Below are positions 1 to 12,446 of a stretch of 64,000 nucleotides of DNA, piece by piece (within the stretch, counting starts at the first letter, position 1; each line of letters begins with the position of its first letter). Origin of the DNA: Actinomycetota bacterium (GTDB lineage: Bacteria > Actinomycetota > Aquicultoria > Subteraquimicrobiales > UBA9087). The position numbers were made by a program, and so were the translations under genes. The stretch is from the NCBI GenBank assembly GCA_030019215.1, contig JASEEZ010000003.1:12109-76108 (forward strand), in the 5' to 3' direction. The notes below the pieces were generated by a model. That model worked only from the letters and a program-made list of their open reading frames with translations, searched no databases and was not told where the DNA came from.

Positions 1-657
1 GAGCTTCGGGCCAAGGGTCTGAGCTCTTACAAATTGGCCCTCTTCGGTGCCCTCGAGGACATCGATGTCGAGGTCGCCAGCGGCCAGATCGCTCTAGCCC
101 TAAAGGACATCACCCTCGCCGACCGAGCATATTCTCTCTACAGGGTTGAGGCCCAGGGGGTTCTGGAGAAGAAGGACGTCGGTGCCTCGATTCCGGAGTC
201 CACCTTTTTGAAGGATGAGACCGTCTACGAGAAGACAAACCTGGTCGACTACATCAAGCGACTCAAGGGAGTGGAGGAACTGGAGGAGGTCCATGGGGTC
301 GCAATCACTGCCCTATCCACGCAGCCTGAACAGAAAAAATACGATCCGGCGAGAGGGCTGGCCGAGCTACCCAGATCGGAGGAGCTTCTGGTGGTAATCA
401 CCGTGGAGAATCAGGGGAATCAGGTTGAAAGGGATATCCCCGTGGTGGTCACGCTCAAGTCAGAGATAGATCCCCGCGAGCAAAAGCGGGAGACGAAAAT
501 GTCATCCCTCCTGCCCGGAGAGAAAAAGACGAGCACAATCAGTGGGCTCAAGCCAGTGGCCGGGGTCGTGAATCTCCTCACTGTGACGGTGGGTCCGGTT
601 CCGAACGAGAAATACACCCGGAACAACGTGAGGGAGTTCAAATTCACTATGCCTTAG
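1..657 (+). CDS. hypothetical protein; 5' end lies outside the window because the frame is open from base 1
   Basis: Frame 1 is open from base 1 to the TAG at 655-657. The track ORF at 34..657 is the in-window part. I recognise no family confidently; there is a possible beta-rich GerM-like C-terminal region. Confidence 0.4.
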   Translation, partial: ELRAKGLSSYKLALFGALEDIDVEVASGQIALALKDITLADRAYSLYRVEAQGVLEKKDVGASIPESTFLKDETVYEKTNLVDYIKRLKGVEELEEVHGVAITALSTQPEQKKYDPARGLAELPRSEELLVVITVENQGNQVERDIPVVVTLKSEIDPREQKRETKMSSLLPGEKKTSTISGLKPVAGVVNLLTVTVGPVPNEKYTRNNVREFKFTMP

Positions 658-1858
658 CTGGCCCCTCTGGTTTTAATCGCTTTTCGGCCTCCCTTTTCAC
701 CACCGTATAGACGATTCTTAAAGGAACCTTTGCCTCCCCAGCCAGGCGAGCGCAGTCTTCATATTCCGGTGAAAGGCTGACCACTTTTCCTTTAAACCTC
801 CCCACCTTGACCCTGGCCTGGCCAAAGTCGGTTTTGACTTCGATGGTTTCTCGGCTGATCTTTCTTCTGGTTTTCCTGGAGAGGTGAACTCCAAAGGTGG
901 TCGTTTCCCTGAAGAGGATGTTCAGGATCTCACTCTCCTCGCCCGCCTTGGCGAGAACGGAGAGGGCCAGTCCGGGTCGATTCTTCTTCATGTAGATGGG
1001 GGATGCCCAGACGTCAAGGGCCCCGGCCTTAAACAACTTGTCCATGACGTAGCCGTAGAATTCTGGGTTGAGGTCGTCGATGTTGGTCTCGATCACTAGG
1101 ACTTCATCCATCTCGGCCGACTCAAACTCTTCGATCTCTCCCAAGATGAGCCGAAGCACATTGGGTATCTCCAGGTCTCTGGTTCCCGCTCCGTAGCCGA
1201 TTGAGCTTATCCTCATTGGTGGCATATCTCCGAAGCTTTTAGCGTAGGTTTTAATGATGGCCGCCCCTGTGGGTGTGGTCAGCTCGGCTGTTATTCCTCG
1301 ACTGTAGATGGGTGCCTCTCTTAGGATTTCCAGAGTGGCGGGTGAGGGAATGGGGATGGCACCGTGTTCTGTCCTTGCCAGCCCCATCCCGGTGGCTAGG
1401 GGCGAGGAGTAAACCTCTTCGATGCCCAATTGGTGGAGTCCGATGGCCGCTCCCACAATGTCGATGATGGTGTCGGTGGCCCCTATCTCGTGAAAATGAA
1501 TTTGATCAAGACTTTTTTGGTGTATTTTCGCCTCCGCCTGGGCCAGCTTGAGGAATATTTCCTTGCTTTTTTCCTTGACGGGAGGGGCGATCGCGCTCTC
1601 ATTGAGCAGATTTTTGATATTTGTCCAGGTACGAACGATGCCCCTTTCCTCCGCTCGAATGCTTACCTTGGTGGCTCCTATCCCTAGTTTGCTGACTTTC
1701 CCCGCCTCTATCTCGTAGTTTTGCAGGGGGAGCTTTTCCAGCTCTTTCCGGAGAGCCTCCAAAGGAAGCCCGACATCCAGGAGGGCTCCCAGAACCATGT
1801 CCCCGCTTATTCCAGCGAAGCAGTCGAAATAGGCTATCTTCATTCCATCAGCCTCCAA
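647..1858 (-). CDS. larC: LarC-like nickel insertion protein (DUF111) for the nickel-pincer nucleotide cofactor
   Basis: 403 aa. N-terminus 'MKIAYFDCFAGISGDMVLGALLDVG' is the hallmark LarC/DUF111 start. Length and C-terminal domain fit. Confidence 0.75.
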   Translation of the reverse strand: MEADGMKIAYFDCFAGISGDMVLGALLDVGLPLEALRKELEKLPLQNYEIEAGKVSKLGIGATKVSIRAEERGIVRTWTNIKNLLNESAIAPPVKEKSKEIFLKLAQAEAKIHQKSLDQIHFHEIGATDTIIDIVGAAIGLHQLGIEEVYSSPLATGMGLARTEHGAIPIPSPATLEILREAPIYSRGITAELTTPTGAAIIKTYAKSFGDMPPMRISSIGYGAGTRDLEIPNVLRLILGEIEEFESAEMDEVLVIETNIDDLNPEFYGYVMDKLFKAGALDVWASPIYMKKNRPGLALSVLAKAGEESEILNILFRETTTFGVHLSRKTRRKISRETIEVKTDFGQARVKVGRFKGKVVSLSPEYEDCARLAGEAKVPLRIVYTVVKREAEKRLKPEGPAKA

Positions 1859-6756: not shown

Positions 6757-8962
<2,206 letters not shown>

Positions 8963-9121
8963 TGTTCCCTCCAAATGATGCAACTCTTTTTAAACACAAT
9001 AGCTGGGAGGCGTCAAGTGTTGCACCCGATGGTGGAAGAAATTCCCTCGACTGCGCTCAGGATATTCGAGTGGCGCTGTGAAATTGTTTAAGCAGTTACC
9101 CTGTGGTAAACTTTTTCTGGA

Positions 9122-9163
9122 GGGTTACGCTAACTGGTAAGCGGGCGGTCTTGAACCCCGCAG
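9122..9163 (+). other. decayed tRNA 5' fragment (D-arm and anticodon-arm-like) immediately 5' of tRNA-Ser(TGA)
   Basis: 'GGAGGGTTACGCTAACTGGTAAGCGGGCGGTCTTGAACCCCGC' aligns with the 5' half of the fragment at 10772 and with type-II tRNA-Ser. It lacks a T-arm and an acceptor 3' strand. Confidence 0.4.
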
Positions 9164-9167
9164 ATAT

Positions 9168-9256
9168 GGTGGGATGGCAGAGTGGTTGAATGCACCGGTC
9201 TTGAAAACCGGCAAGGTCGTAAGGCCTTCAGGGGTTCGAATCCTCTTCCCACCGCC
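9168..9256 (+). tRNA. tRNA-Ser (anticodon TGA), type II with long variable arm, CCA encoded
   Basis: Acceptor GGTGGGA/TCCCACC. Anticodon loop CTTGAAA. T-loop GGTTCGAATCC. Discriminator G followed by CCA. Confidence 0.85.
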
Positions 9257-9466
9257 AATATGTGCGGGGCAAGTCCCTCACCCTCCGCCATTTTTGCGAA
9301 GCAAAAATGTCCTGAGTGAATCGGAGTTTGGCAAAGATGAGCCGAAGGGCAACAGTCCTAAGCAGCCTCGGGGGACAAAACGGGAAATGGACAGTGAGGA
9401 GTCGGCAGTAAATAAATCTTAAATCTTTTTACTCCCGACTCTCCACTAATAAACTCCCAACTTATT

Positions 9467-9559
9467 GGAGAGGTGCCCGAGTGGTTGAAGGGAGCCGCCT
9501 GCTAAGCGGTTAAGCCGGGAAACTGGCTTCGAGGGTTCGAATCCCTCCCTCTCCGCCAC
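9467..9559 (+). tRNA. tRNA-Ser (anticodon GCT), type II, CCA encoded
   Basis: Acceptor GGAGAGG/CCTCTCC. Anticodon loop CTGCTAA. T-arm GAGGGTTCGAATCCCTC. Discriminator G followed by CCA. Confidence 0.85.
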
Positions 9560-9656
9560 ATTTTAGTTGGTAGTTAGGAGTCGGGAGTCGGTAGTAAATA
9601 AAATCTTTATAAATCTTTTCACTCCAGACTACCCACTAACAAACTCCCGACTAAAT

Positions 9657-9732
9657 GCGCTCGTGGCTCAACGGATAGAGCGACGGACTACGAATCCGTA
9701 GGTTGGGGGTTCGATTCCCTCCGAGCGCACCA
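9657..9732 (+). tRNA. tRNA-Arg (anticodon ACG), CCA encoded; the substrate of TadA
   Basis: GCGCTCG acceptor. Anticodon loop CTACGAA. T-arm GGGGGTTCGATTCCCTC. Then CGAGCGC, discriminator A and CCA. Confidence 0.85.
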
Positions 9733-9910
9733 TTCTTGCGTGAAGTTCTCTTTGAATGGTGTAACTGAGGCACTAGGGGGTATGGGGGATTTATCCCCCA
9801 TGATTTAGGGGGTGACAGCCCCGCCGCAGGCGGGGCGTCCTCAGGGGGACTTGTCCCCCTAGGAACGTCGCGGAGGCGACGAGGGGGTTCGATTCCCTCC
9901 GAGCGCACCA
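9733..9910 (+). other. GC-rich multi-hairpin spacer followed by a 27-nt duplicate of the tRNA-Arg 3' end (9884-9910)
   Basis: Three G5/C5 hairpins (GGGGGATTTATCCCCC, GCCCCGCCGCAGGCGGGGC, GGGGGACTTGTCCCCC) nested in a CTAGGGGG/CCCCCTAG outer stem. 'GGTTCGATTCCCTCCGAGCGCACCA' at 9884-9910 is identical to the 3' end of the tRNA-Arg at 9657-9732. Confidence 0.55.
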
Positions 9911-9929
9911 GAAATGCGGTTAATAGTGG

Positions 9930-10121
9930 GTGGTTTGTAGCAAAATTCTGTATGATGTTGAGCCTAGGCTACGGGAGAAACGTTATGGGGAAGGTCTGCC
10001 AAGCGTGTATTATGATTCAGAATCTTATAAAGTTAAAAAAGAATGCTGGAAGAAAACAGGATTTATCAGACGTAGAAGTGTTAGAGAAAGTGGAAAAGGT
10101 TCTTGCAAAGGAAGAGGATGA
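9930..10121 (+). CDS. small hypothetical ORF in AT-rich insert (a 59-aa alternative frame with a CQAC pair also exists)
   Basis: 63-aa ORF in a roughly 35% GC island between the duplicated tRNA-Arg end and tadA. No recognisable family. The coding frame is uncertain. Confidence 0.2.
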   Translation: MVCSKILYDVEPRLREKRYGEGLPSVYYDSESYKVKKECWKKTGFIRRRSVRESGKGSCKGRG

Positions 10122-10303
10122 AACGGACTAAAGTTTTGAAGGGATACCATCATAGCTATTCTGAGGAATCTATTAAACAATATATGGCTTTGCCTACCGA
10201 AATGAAACTCAAATGGTTGGAGGAGGTAAATAGATTTTCTTACTGCGCTTTACCCCCAAAAAACAAAAAAATTAGGGAACTTCTTAGAGCTGGTAAAATT
10301 TAG
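10103..10303 (+). CDS. small hypothetical protein (66 aa, basic N-terminus, helical C-terminus) in AT-rich insert
   Basis: 'MQRKRMKRTKVLKGYHHSYSEESIKQYMALPTEMKLKWLEEVNRF...'. Low-GC codon usage unlike its neighbours. Possibly a remnant cargo gene of an integrated element. Confidence 0.25.
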   Translation: MQRKRMKRTKVLKGYHHSYSEESIKQYMALPTEMKLKWLEEVNRFSYCALPPKNKKIRELLRAGKI

Positions 10304-10315
10304 CTAGGTAAAGAT

Positions 10316-10762
10316 ATGACAGATGAAGAATATATAAAAATAGCTATTGGGGAGGCGAGAAAGGCCGCTTCCCAAGATGAGGTGCCTGTTGGCGCCGTTA
10401 TTGTTTTTGGTGATGAAATTATCGCTCGTGCCCACAATGAGCGCGAGGCCAGGCGCGATCCCACCGCCCACGCTGAGATTTTGGCCATTCGGGAGGCGGC
10501 TCGGCATCTTGGGAGCTGGCGATTGGCGAGTTGCACCATCTATGTGACTAAGGAACCCTGCCCCATGTGCGCCGGGGCGATCTTTCAAGCTCGCATCGAC
10601 CGGTTAGTTTATGGGGCTCCGGACGAGAAAGCGGGGGCGGTGGGCACTCTATACAACATAGTCAACGACGAAAGATTGAACCACCAGGTTGAAGTGGTGG
10701 CTGGAGTTTGCGAAAAAGTTTGTCGAGAGCTCCTGCAAGATTTTTTCAAAAAAAGGCGATAA
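10316..10762 (+). CDS. tadA: tRNA-specific adenosine deaminase (A34 of tRNA-Arg(ACG))
   Basis: 148 aa. CDA-fold zinc motifs 'HAEILAIREAA' and 'PCPMCAGAI'. Confidence 0.9.
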   Translation: MTDEEYIKIAIGEARKAASQDEVPVGAVIVFGDEIIARAHNEREARRDPTAHAEILAIREAARHLGSWRLASCTIYVTKEPCPMCAGAIFQARIDRLVYGAPDEKAGAVGTLYNIVNDERLNHQVEVVAGVCEKVCRELLQDFFKKRR

Positions 10763-10771
10763 AATAGTTTT

Positions 10772-10846
10772 GGAGGGGTCGCATAGTCCGGTCTAGTGCG
10801 GCGGTCTCGAACCCCGCAAAATTTGGCGGTGGCACACGCGGAGCCC
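10772..10846 (+). other. decayed tRNA-Ser-like 5' fragment (pseudo-tRNA) upstream of tRNA-Ser(CGA)
   Basis: 'GGAGGGGTCGCATAGTCCGGTCTAGTGCGGCGGTCTCGAACCCCGC' closely parallels the 5' half of the tRNA-Ser(GGA) at 11218 (acceptor, D-arm, CGA-like anticodon arm). It has no T-arm or acceptor 3' strand. Confidence 0.45.
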
Positions 10847-10882
10847 TGAAGCGATCGGGGAATCTATTTCATAAGATAAGAT

Positions 10883-10973
10883 GGTGGGGTGCCAGAGCTT
10901 GGTTTATTGGGCTGGTCTCGAAAACCAGTGTCCGCTTAGGCGGACCGTGAGTTCGAATCTCACCCCCACCGCC
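10883..10973 (+). tRNA. tRNA-Ser (anticodon CGA), type II, CCA encoded
   Basis: Acceptor GGTGGGG/CCCCACC. Anticodon loop CTCGAAA. T-arm GTGAGTTCGAATCTCAC. Discriminator G followed by CCA. Confidence 0.85.
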
Positions 10974-11217
10974 AATATGTGCGGGGCGAATCCCACCCCC
11001 TCCGCTACCCCGCCTGTGGCAGGGTGCCCTGAGCTTAGCTGAAGGGCGAGATAGCAATTAGTTAGTAGTGGGGGAGTTGGGGGCCGGAGTTAATGAAAAA
11101 TGGAGAACGAAAAATGAAAAATTACAACGTAAAATTAAGAATGTTTTTAAATCCTTAAATCATTCTTCATTTTTAGTTCTTAATTCTGACTGTCAACTAA
11201 CAGACTCTTGATTAACT

Positions 11218-11308
11218 GGAGGAGTCGCATAGTTGGCCTAGTGCGCGCGACTGGAAATCGCGTTGGGTACCAAAAGTACCCTCGAGGGTTCGAATCCCTC
11301 CTCCTCCG
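11218..11308 (+). tRNA. tRNA-Ser (anticodon GGA), type II, CCA not encoded
   Basis: Acceptor GGAGGAG/CTCCTCC. Anticodon loop CTGGAAA. Long variable arm. T-arm GAGGGTTCGAATCCCTC. Discriminator G followed by CTA. Confidence 0.8.
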
Positions 11309-11351
11309 CTAGTTGGAAAATCTTTCTTTTTGATTCATAAACAGATATTTT

Positions 11352-11433
11352 TAGAGTGTAGAGTGGGGACGCTGTAGAGTAGAGTGGGGACGCTGTAGAG
11401 TGGGGACGCTGGTTGCAACTGTTGCAGTCGTCC
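11352..11433 (+). repeat. three tandem TAGAG(TAGAG)TGGGGACGCTG repeats ending in an imperfect GGGACG...CGTCCC hairpin (REP/subterminal-hairpin-like), directly 5' of the Y1 transposase gene
   Basis: Tandem copies read at 11352-11374, 11375-11395 and 11396-11411. Hairpin GGGACGCTGGTTGCAACTGTTGCAGTCGTCCC at 11404-11433. Confidence 0.6.
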
Positions 11434-11456
11434 CTTAATTCTGTTAAATTCAGCCT

Positions 11457-12446
11457 ATGCCCAGACAACCAAGACTTGAAGCCCCAGGACTTATCTATCA
11501 CGTAATTGCACGAGGAATAGAGAGAAGAGAGATCTTTACTGACAAGGATGATTACACCTTCTTTCTTACCTGTTTTGGCGAGATTTTAGTTGAGACTCAT
11601 GCAGATTGTCTTGCTTTCTCTCTTCTTCCCAATCACTTTCACCTTCTGTTTAGATCAGGGGAAATTCCTCTCTCAACCATTATGAGACGACTTCTCACCA
11701 GATATGCTTTATTCTTCAACCGAAGACACAGACGATCTGGTCATCTTTTCCAAAACCGCTACAAATCAATCATTTGTCAAGAAGACCCCTATCTTCTCGA
11801 GCTTGTGCGCTATATTCATCTTAATCCCATACGAGCAGGCATTACAAAATCCTTGAGTGAGCTTAATTCCTATTCCTATACAGGACATAGCGCTCTCTTA
11901 GGAAGAGCACGCTTTGGCTGGTACCTGCCAGAAGCTATTCTTGGCTACTTTGGCAAAACTCAAAAGAAAGCTATCAAGAAATACTTAGAATTCATTGGTG
12001 ATGGTCTATCAATGGGAACAAATCCCACATATACTGGCAACAGCCCTAAGAGCTCTTTTGGTTATCCAAAGAGATATCCCAAGAAAAAGCAGATCTCTGA
12101 TGGGAGAATCCTTGGAGATGAAGATTTTGTCCGCGCTCTACAGGAGTGTGAAGAGAAAGAAAAGGAGAAAGGGAGTAAAGTGAGTATAGAAGAGTTGACT
12201 AAACGAGTAGCTAAGACATATTCTTTGGAGCCTGAGCAAATTAGAGGGAGGGGGAGAGCAAAACAATTAAGAGAAGCGAGAACTTTAGTAGCTTACGTTG
12301 CCACTACTTACCTAGGTTTTTCTTTTGCCGAAATAGCTCGTTACCTGAAAGTACATCGCTCAACATCAGCTAGAATGTTAGAGCGAGGCAAAGAGATTGC
12401 AAAGGGTATCGATGCTAAGCAGTGGATAATAGCAAAGGAGAAGTAA
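11457..12446 (+). mobile_element. IS200/IS605-type (Y1, HUH) transposase domain fused to a DnaA-C-terminal-like HTH domain (RAYT-like)
   Basis: 329 aa. N-terminus 'LIYHVIARGIERREIF...LLPNHFHLLF...FQNRY' (HUH plus catalytic Tyr, the Transposase_17 pattern). C-terminus 'QLREARTLVAYVATTYLGFSFAEIARYLKVHRSTSARMLERG' is DnaA_C-like. It is flanked by REP-like repeats. Confidence 0.7.

Follow-up and report, generated by a model that had tools for sequence, protein, structure and literature searches.

We examined a tRNA island in a 64,000-nucleotide stretch of Actinomycetota DNA, the whole of which is referred to here as the window. ARAGORN and Rfam identified five tRNA genes in the island, four for tRNA-Ser and one for tRNA-Arg(ACG). 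The genes for tRNA-Ser(UGA) and tRNA-Ser(CGA) are each nested within a broken tRNA-Ser gene having the identical anticodon, and the two nested arrangements are designated composites 1 and 2. Their parts belong to two sequence types of tRNA-Ser, type A with the acceptor strand GGAGRGG and type B with GGTGGGR, which have only about two thirds of their positions in common.

Two intact tRNA-Ser genes nested within broken ones

Composite 1, at the tRNA-Ser(UGA) locus, consists of the following parts.

9119–9155, plus strand: 5' remnant of the outer gene (outer 1), an ancestral type-A tRNA-Ser(UGA)
9156–9167, plus strand: left inverted-repeat arm CCCCGCAGATAT, complementary at 11 of 12 positions to 9258–9269
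9168–9257, plus strand: inner intact type-B tRNA-Ser(UGA), CCA encoded (ARAGORN; Rfam tRNA model, 58.8 bits)
9258–9269, plus strand: right inverted-repeat arm ATATGTGCGGGG, with an identical copy at 10975–10986, within a 55-nt direct repeat
9270–9290, plus strand: 3' remnant of outer 1, pairing 7/7 with 9119–9125

Read in order, the composite comprises GGAGGGTTACGCTAACTGGTAAGCGGGCGGTCTTGAA (9119–9155), CCCCGCAGATAT (9156–9167), the intact tRNA-Ser(UGA), ATATGTGCGGGG (9258–9269), and CAAGTCCCTC ACCCTCC G CCA (9270–9290). The 5' remnant contains the acceptor 5' strand GGAGGGT, a decayed D-arm, the 5' strand of the anticodon stem, and the anticodon loop as far as CTTGAA (position 37). The 3' remnant resumes in the T-loop at about position 56/57 and continues through the T-stem 3' strand CCCTC, the acceptor 3' strand ACCCTCC, G73, and CCA. 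In composite 1 the insert has precisely the length of a mature tRNA, beginning at +1 and ending with CCA, and ATAT repeats bound it.

Composite 2, at the tRNA-Ser(CGA) locus, has a similar organization with an additional filler segment.

10772–10811, plus strand: 5' remnant of the outer gene (outer 2), an ancestral type-A tRNA-Ser(CGA)
10812–10832, plus strand: left inverted-repeat arm CCCCGCAAAATTTGGCGGTGG, complementary at 18 of 21 positions to 10966–10986
10833–10882, plus strand: filler between the left arm and the inner tRNA
10883–10974, plus strand: inner intact type-B tRNA-Ser(CGA), CCA encoded (ARAGORN; Rfam tRNA model, 50.8 bits)
10975–10986, plus strand: right inverted-repeat arm ATATGTGCGGGG
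10987–11007, plus strand: 3' remnant of outer 2, with CGAAT (T-loop), CCCAC, the acceptor 3' strand CCCCTCC, G73, and CTA

Here the order is GGAGGGGTCGCATAGTCCGGTCTAGTGCGGCGGTCTCGAA (10772–10811), CCCCGCAAAATTTGGCGGTGG (10812–10832), 50 nt of filler, the intact tRNA-Ser(CGA), ATATGTGCGGGG (10975–10986), and CGAATCCCAC CCCCTCC G CTA (10987–11007). The 5' remnant retains the acceptor 5' strand GGAGGGG, the D-arm, the 5' strand of the anticodon stem, and the loop to CTCGAA, and the 3' remnant pairs 7/7 with 10772–10778. The left arm contains an inverted copy of the final 9 nt of the inner tRNA-Ser(CGA). The filler has no significant similarity to tRNA; outside the 21-nt inverted repeat, neither a derivation from the region upstream of the related gene in locus L010 (described below) nor one from an inverted tRNA 3' half reached significance (20/500 and 68/1000 shuffles). 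A hairpin resembling a terminator is present in the filler at 10844–10860, the counts of such sites not exceeding chance.

The original prediction correctly placed a tRNA-Ser-like fragment upstream of each of these two intact genes, but its view of the fragments changes in several respects. The limits given, 9122–9163 and 10772–10846, become 9119–9155 and 10772–10811, with 10812–10882 being inverted-repeat arm and filler rather than tRNA. The two anticodons, both described as CGA-type, are TGA in outer 1 and CGA in outer 2, each matching that of its own inner tRNA. The T-arm and acceptor 3' strand reported as missing are found in part on the far side of each intact gene, at 9270–9290 and 10987–11007, as a truncated T-loop, T-stem 3' strand, acceptor 3' strand, G73, and CCA or CTA. 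What had been taken for stray partial copies, orphan 5' halves, belongs to the two ends of an ancestral gene that is split by an intact replacement gene.

The two composites resemble each other closely at their junctions. In both, the old gene breaks off in the anticodon loop, following position 37 (CTYGAA), and resumes at about position 56/57 of the T-loop. A repeat search identified a left junction motif of 19 nt, GGCGGTCTYGAACCCCGCA, at 9144–9162 and 10800–10818 (95% identical) and a right-hand repeat of 55 nt that is common to both composites (84% identical, including 23 identical bases, CCCACCGCCAATATGTGCGGGGC). An inverted repeat of the form CCCCGCA.ATAT / ATATGTGCGGGG flanks the inner genes. 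The outer acceptor strands pair at all seven positions at both loci (GGAGGGT/ACCCTCC and GGAGGGG/CCCCTCC), so that one base pair differs between the loci with pairing kept.

Both inner genes are intact and score as normal tRNAs with Rfam, well above the gathering score of 29 bits. The outer pieces behave differently. They lack the T-stem 5' strand and the TT of the T-loop, and they retain either the anticodon-stem 3' strand or the variable-arm 5' strand but not both. ARAGORN found no tRNA in the window fragments, nor in the outer halves joined in silico in three variants. Because these segments are absent, the outer pieces cannot re-form a tRNA. These data bear on the idea that the outer halves constitute a working split or intron-containing tRNA, in which the inner tRNA serves as a variable-arm 'intron' that is removed by RNase P and 3' processing while the halves remain annealed. 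The perfect acceptor complementarity, the correct anticodon in a plausible loop, and arms able to hold the halves together speak for such an arrangement. The missing parts of the T-arm and of the anticodon or variable arm, and the failure of the joined halves to be recognized, speak against it, as does the absence of group I intron matches; a search of Rfam at E up to 10 over 8900–11500 gave no group I or other intron family, no T-box, and no other plausible family. (The matches to sX4 and to a plastid UTR, or untranslated region, were merely the tRNAs themselves.) The idea is largely refuted by the complete loss of the anticodon region in the related loci L017–L020, and we regard it as extremely improbable.

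Ancestry of the outer pieces and of the inner genes

Related loci, given L-numbers, were retrieved by means of TadA and UbiA homologs and come from related Actinomycetota metagenome-assembled genomes (MAGs) or assemblies, L002 being Candidatus Oleimmundimicrobium. The TadA of the window is 100% identical to that of an Actinomycetota MAG, and its nearest named relative is Candidatus Oleimmundimicrobium. TadA identities separate three clades: clade W, with the window, L001, and L009 (85–91%); clade X, with L010 (approximately 77% to all); and the Oleimmundimicrobium-like clade O. Members of clade O carry intact type-A tRNA-Ser(UGA) and tRNA-Ser(CGA) genes, with the acceptor GGAGRGG, at places matching the outer pieces, the loci with intact type-A genes being L002, L004–L008, and L011. 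The 5' remnant of outer 1 follows the UbiA gene, and an intact gene is found at the equivalent place in L002 and L004–L007. Outer 2 starts 10 nt past the tadA stop codon, and an intact gene lies at approximately 10 nt in L001, L002, L005, L008, and L009.

Alignments with these intact genes confirm the orthology of the outer pieces. In relatives, the intact tRNA-Ser(CGA) begins with 40 nt, up to CTCGAA, that are identical to the segment 10772–10811 at 37 of 40 positions, and a local alignment of outer 2 matches at 46 of 50 positions, a score reached by none of 1000 shuffles. The 5' piece of outer 1 aligns with the tRNA-Ser(UGA) of relatives at the same significance (0/1000). The 3' remnant of outer 1 and its downstream flank align with the 3' end and flank of the L002 tRNA-Ser(UGA) (score 78, 0/1000 shuffles), an example of the flank match being CCGCCATTTTTGCGAAGCAAAAATG in the window and CCGCCATTTTTACGAAGCAAAAATG in L002. 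The 3' remnant of outer 2 runs into a flank homologous to that following the L001 tRNA-Ser(CGA) (score 101, 0/1000 shuffles). For all five alignments of outer pieces, with their flanks, to relatives, 0/1000 shuffles equaled the observed score. Because position, flanks, isoacceptor identity, and alignments all match the intact genes of relatives, the outer pieces are, as judged from sequence comparison, the ancestral tRNA-Ser genes in situ. Position with flanks, isoacceptor identity, and relaxed constraint are together those of remnants of orthologous tRNA-Ser genes.

Covariance models gave a more uneven picture. With R1, a model built from 16 tRNA-Ser genes of the relatives only, the 5' fragment of outer 2 scored 20.1 bits (E approximately 8e-4) and that of outer 1 scored 5.7 bits (E approximately 1); the 3' remnants scored 3–4 bits, and neither these nor the outer-1 fragment is significant alone. 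The Rfam tRNA model (RF00005) matched neither fragment at E up to 10 in the region 8900–11500. The tRNA-like score expected of the fragments was thus obtained for fragment 2 with R1, and was not obtained for fragment 1 or with the Rfam model. Fragment 2 is clear from its sequence alone; the assignment of fragment 1 draws mainly on position, flank, and pairing.

The silence of the general tRNA model, the low R1 score of fragment 1, and the origin of composite 2 from one MAG assembly would be in keeping with a chance resemblance or an assembly chimera. Against this stand the shuffling results for all five alignments, the synteny and continuity of the flanks, and the recovery of composite 1 in six assemblies from different samples. 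Moreover, the repeated parts have diverged from each other, whereas a chimera would give identical copies. We consider an artefact of either kind highly improbable.

The six assemblies containing the tRNA-Ser(UGA) composite represent two lineages: the window and L016 (UbiA 99% identical), and a sister lineage represented by L017–L020 from four samples. This distribution indicates that the composite is older than the split of the lineages and is not an assembly artefact. The inner tRNA-Ser(UGA) is nearly identical across these assemblies, with two differing positions, both in the D-loop. The 5' remnant is not conserved. In L016 (60–101, minus strand, corresponding to approximately window position 9148) the 5' remnant is interrupted by an inserted palindrome of 42 nt, CTGTCCGCCATTGGCTTCGCCTGCAGGCGGTGACAGGCGGGC, with GCGGGC duplicated; no copy of this insert was found in the window. 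In L017–L020 the anticodon-like segment of the 5' remnant has been lost and a local hairpin, GCCCCGCCGTCGGCGGGGC, stands in its stead. Such insertions and deletions between relatives argue against a conserved leader element and against a tRNA-like role for the outer anticodon. Comparison of the island with its relatives thus bears out the tRNA origin of the pieces, which match intact type-A genes by place and by alignment, and does not bear out the alternative raised in the original prediction, that the 5' fragments are conserved leaders for tRNA processing.

The inner genes have a different history from the outer ones. The type-A tRNA-Ser(CGA) (type A1) is intact in clade O and present as a remnant in the window, which indicates that type A1 is ancestral and type B the newcomer. 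A type-B tRNA-Ser(CGA) stands alone, without remnants, in L010; it occupies the same locus with the native upstream flank, is approximately 94% identical to the inner gene of the window, and has no encoded CCA.

A third, mosaic version of tRNA-Ser(CGA), designated A2 and also without an encoded CCA, is found at 796–886 of L001 and 843–933 of L009. Its acceptor, D-loop, and T-arm resemble those of the tRNA-Ser(GCU) of the same lineage, and its variable arm, CCCGCAGATATGCGGG, is the arm sequence found around the nested genes; the left arm CCCCGCAGATAT of composite 1 is similar to it. The mosaic composition of A2 suggests that exchange among tRNA-Ser paralogs is frequent.

Probable gene displacement in situ and possible mechanisms of insertion

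We consider it probable that the composites arose by displacement of tRNA genes in situ, the ancestral type-A tRNA-Ser(UGA) and tRNA-Ser(CGA) genes each having been split by a complete type-B tRNA-Ser gene with the same anticodon. According to this model, an insertion carrying a complete type-B tRNA-Ser would have broken each ancestral gene in its middle, and it would be this insertion, not subsequent decay, that inactivated the old gene. The inner gene, with its encoded CCA, would be the present working tRNA. It may be transcribed from the promoter of the old gene, because a conserved stretch ending in TGTGGTAAACTTTTTCT is found directly 5' of the outer 5' end in both lineages; a promoter and terminator scan of the island gave nothing beyond chance level. 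The old 5' part would then act as a leader cut off by RNase P, the old 3' part as a trailer cut off by 3' processing, and the outer pieces themselves would be pseudogene debris.

Several observations weigh against this model. The junctions of the two composites are near-identical (GGCGGTCTYGAACCCCGCA on the left and CCCACCGCCAATATGTGCGGGGC on the right) though the inner tRNAs and the outer D-arms differ, and the same outer segments are absent from both. These shared junctions and losses are not expected of independent decay, and require either gene conversion between the loci, which are 1.7 kb apart, or a sequence-directed insertion. If the arms are the variable arm of the old gene, as hinted by A2, the same two adjoining segments are absent at both loci; if the arms were brought by the insert, the insert would have recombined at the same two loops twice. 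Composite 2 was found in a single assembly, that of the window, and the gene at the same locus in L001 and L009 is uninterrupted. Between the window and L017, composite 1 shows no difference in its 3' remnant or in the opening 21 nt of its 5' remnant, which could mean constraint. Finally, leader and trailer are predicted to pair as a long rod with the cloverleaf at its tip (minimum free energy of −78.8 kcal/mol, z = −4.5), and such a rod could serve in processing.

The last two observations could be accounted for if the remnants had been exapted, with the outer acceptor pairing and the arms forming a stem that is maintained for processing or regulation of the inner tRNA, much as leader and trailer pair around rRNAs. 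The outer acceptor pairing is likewise identical in the window and L017 lineages, and the arms are alike in both composites. Other features do not fit such a stem. In L017–L020 the sequence beside the inner tRNA pairs locally as a hairpin and no longer with the right arm; the leader in L016 is interrupted by the 42-nt insertion; composite 2 contains 50 nt of unrelated filler; and the two native tRNA-Ser genes of the island (GCT and GGA) have no such stems. The adjoining non-coding DNA, moreover, is conserved about equally, being approximately 95% identical between the window and L017, so that zero changes in 54 nt are only marginally unexpected. We judge a maintained stem to be quite unlikely.

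A further possibility is that a minimal selfish cassette, made up of the inner tRNA and its inverted-repeat arms, enters cognate tRNA-Ser genes and kills the resident while replacing its function. Such a cassette might be a DNA element or a reverse-transcribed mature tRNA ending in CCA. This would fit the exact +1-to-CCA insert between ATAT repeats at the UGA locus and the type-B gene of L010 without encoded CCA; an origin of the UGA insert from cDNA would fit as well, on thin evidence. It would also fit the junctions that both composites share in the anticodon loop and in the T-loop, the T-loop being the motif of SegB (see below), and the presence of a LAGLIDADG open reading frame (ORF) adjoining the composite in the sister lineage. 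As in transposable elements, terminal inverted repeats are present (12-nt arms in composite 1, 21-nt arms in composite 2). A target-site duplication might be seen in the ATAT bounding the insert of composite 1, and composite 2 has no clean equivalent.

Searches for further copies of a cassette were negative. No other copies of the arms were found in the window or in loci L001–L008. A scan of a genome collection with the right junction ATATGTGCGGGGCRARTCCC returned 4 matches, none near a tRNA and approximately the chance expectation. A metagenome scan with CACCGCCAATATNTGCGGGG returned 4 matches without tRNAs; it did not return the contig of L017, a Joint Genome Institute (JGI) record that carries the pattern, and so is not exhaustive for the clade. 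Scans of viral contigs for both type-B tRNAs gave no match, and blastn against phages and plasmids gave only generic tRNA-Ser similarity of 72–79%. Overall, a selfish cassette appears unlikely. The arms were also considered as members of a family of hairpins resembling repetitive extragenic palindromes (REP); CCCGC...GCGGG hairpins are mildly enriched (9 against approximately 3 expected), but they are heterogeneous and terminator-like.

The LAGLIDADG ORF encodes 377 amino acids (46–1179, minus strand, in L017, L018, and L019) and contains two LAGLIDADG-like motifs and a helix-turn-helix (HTH), with a LAGLIDADG_3 match of 29.2 bits (cut-off 22.5). It is free-standing and outside the composite, and in L017–L019 it fills the interval that separates the UGA composite from tRNA-Ser(GCU). 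No homolog is present in the 64-kb window, the sole match being due to the run-on of the ORF into tRNA-Ser(GCT).

Xenologous gene displacement in situ is a concept described for operon genes and for aminoacyl-tRNA synthetases, and the composites are best described in these terms, with both ends of the displaced gene still present. As in the described cases, a resident gene gives way, at its own position, to a distant version of the same function, and L010 would represent the clean end state for tRNA-Ser(CGA). Clean displacement is normally traceless, whereas the composites retain the two ends of the displaced gene on either side of the newcomer.

Other systems share some of these features. The tRNA fragments at attachment (att) sites, and the disruption of archaeal tRNA genes by a mobile element (Sugahara et al. 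2012, PMC3293823), are alike in having partial copies beside an intact tRNA of the same identity as a result of insertion. Unlike att fragments, however, the tRNA-Ser insert is essentially one complete tRNA gene of another sequence type lying between 5' and 3' remnants; there is no recombinase or element body in the composites, and function would be restored by the insert rather than by a rebuilt hybrid gene. The split, permuted, and multiply-interrupted tRNA genes of Archaea and red algae (PMC4390854, PMC4033280) are alike in their non-canonical interruption and complementary flanks. Those genes are rejoined by splicing at bulge-helix-bulge motifs, whereas the exons here cannot form a cloverleaf; the organism here is also a bacterium, and the 'intron' is itself a presumed working tRNA. 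SegB of phage T4 is a free-standing endonuclease that recognizes a conserved tRNA T-stem-loop motif and drives replacement of the tRNA region of a rival phage (PMC2330249). One composite breakpoint lies in the T-loop and the LAGLIDADG ORF directly follows the UGA composite in L017–L019; the endonuclease gene is, however, outside the composite in those loci and not in the window; a link to SegB would be a lead by analogy only. In our search of the literature for tRNA genes that are nested or displaced, the cases recovered were disrupted tRNAs of archaea and algae and endonucleases of tRNA clusters; no bacterial tRNA within a tRNA of the same anticodon was found.

Phylogeny is the usual basis for inferring turnover of bacterial tRNA genes. 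In the present case, two interleavings of an old with a new gene within 2 kb give the breakpoints at nucleotide resolution. The shared junctions point to a specific mechanism of insertion, whether by gene conversion, by repair that an endonuclease triggers, or by a tRNA that is mobile or retro-copied. The composites also provide a bacterial comparison for the origin of disrupted tRNA genes. For annotation, a half-tRNA match beside an intact tRNA is a reason to inspect the far side of the intact gene.

The tRNA-Arg locus and other features of the island

The remaining genes and features of the island and its borders are as follows.

6826–8097: serS (seryl-tRNA synthetase)
8084–8983, minus strand: heme o synthase gene (UbiA family)
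9467–9558: tRNA-Ser(GCU)
9657–9910, plus strand: tRNA-Arg rearrangement, comprising tRNA-Arg(ACG) (9657–9732), a 150-nt insert (9733–9882), and a second copy of the last 28 nt of the tRNA (9883–9910, 100% identical)
10316–10762, plus strand: tadA, the anchor gene for synteny
11218–11309: tRNA-Ser(GGA)

The ends of serS and the convergent UbiA-family gene overlap by 14 nt, and serS lies approximately 1 kb away from an island that carries genes for all four tRNA-Ser isoacceptors.

The 150-nt insert at the tRNA-Arg locus consists of four GC-rich hairpins (folding z = −3.2). The second 28-nt copy bears the ancestral downstream flank, and the same structure is found in L009 (1–70) and L001 (1–30). 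A hairpin, GTCGCGGAGGCGAC, lies just 5' of the copy, with the result that the copy scores as the 3' half of a type-II tRNA (R1, 16.4 bits). With this copy the island contains five partial tRNA pieces, where the original prediction counted three; its suggestion of repeated recombination or integration is supported, three separate rearrangements being visible in the two tRNA-Ser composites and the tRNA-Arg duplication.

The tRNA-Arg duplication resembles the att-scar kind of fragment. Because tRNA genes are known integration sites, the partial tRNAs of the whole island might be viewed as attL/attR duplications left by tRNA-targeting integrative elements. The tRNA-Arg locus fits this view in that 28 nt of the 3' end are directly repeated without change and the second copy is followed by the ancestral flank, yet only 150 nt separate the copies. 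The tRNA-Ser loci do not fit: what lies upstream of each intact tRNA is a 5' part, what lies downstream is of the other sequence type and does not repeat the adjoining intact tRNA, only a tRNA lies between the pieces, and there is no ORF between them and no integrase ORF in or beside the composites. Integrase scars are a very unlikely source of the composites.

Independent insertions at the same tRNA genes are found in relatives: PF05635 cassettes (L002, probably also L025), the LAGLIDADG ORF (L017–L019), and the 42-nt palindrome (L016). Together with the composites, these mark the serS–tadA tRNA island as an insertion hotspot. In L002 (2747–3299 and 4458–4924), tRNA-Ser(UGA) and tRNA-Ser(CGA) are each preceded by the first 12–13 nt of the tRNA, a short hairpin, a gene of PF05635 (the 23S rRNA intervening-sequence/four-helix-bundle family), and a repeated promoter-like stretch. 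A similar break after nt 17 is seen in L025 (1–40, minus strand). The PF05635 unit looks like a cassette that may enter the D-arm region of tRNA-Ser genes and supply a new 5' end.

Three tandem or overlapping copies of GTAGAGTGGGGACGCTG are located at 11355–11412 and nowhere else in the window. Just 3' of them, at 11457–12446, is an ORF of 329 amino acids with an IS200-like Y1 transposase domain and a DnaA C-terminal HTH. The repeats and the transposase ORF, situated right after tRNA-Ser(GGA), form an arrangement of the REP-associated tyrosine transposase (RAYT)/REP-like kind. The interval from the tRNA-Arg remnant to tadA contains two small overlapping ORFs of 63 and 66 amino acids, neither with a Pfam match (window 9930–10303; L001 142–327); they are conserved in L001 and L009, and only their ends are left in the Oleimmundimicrobium-like clade. 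Finally, a unit of approximately 48 nt (TAAATCTTTT.ACTCC.GACT..CCACTAA.AAACTCC..ACT.A.TG) occurs at 9420–9467, 9610–9657, and 11171–11218, directly 5' of tRNA-Ser(GCU), tRNA-Arg, and tRNA-Ser(GGA), and is absent 5' of both nested genes. It has inverted partners, TAGTTAGGAGTCGGGAGT, 3' of the tRNAs, and may represent a spacer, promoter, or processing module.

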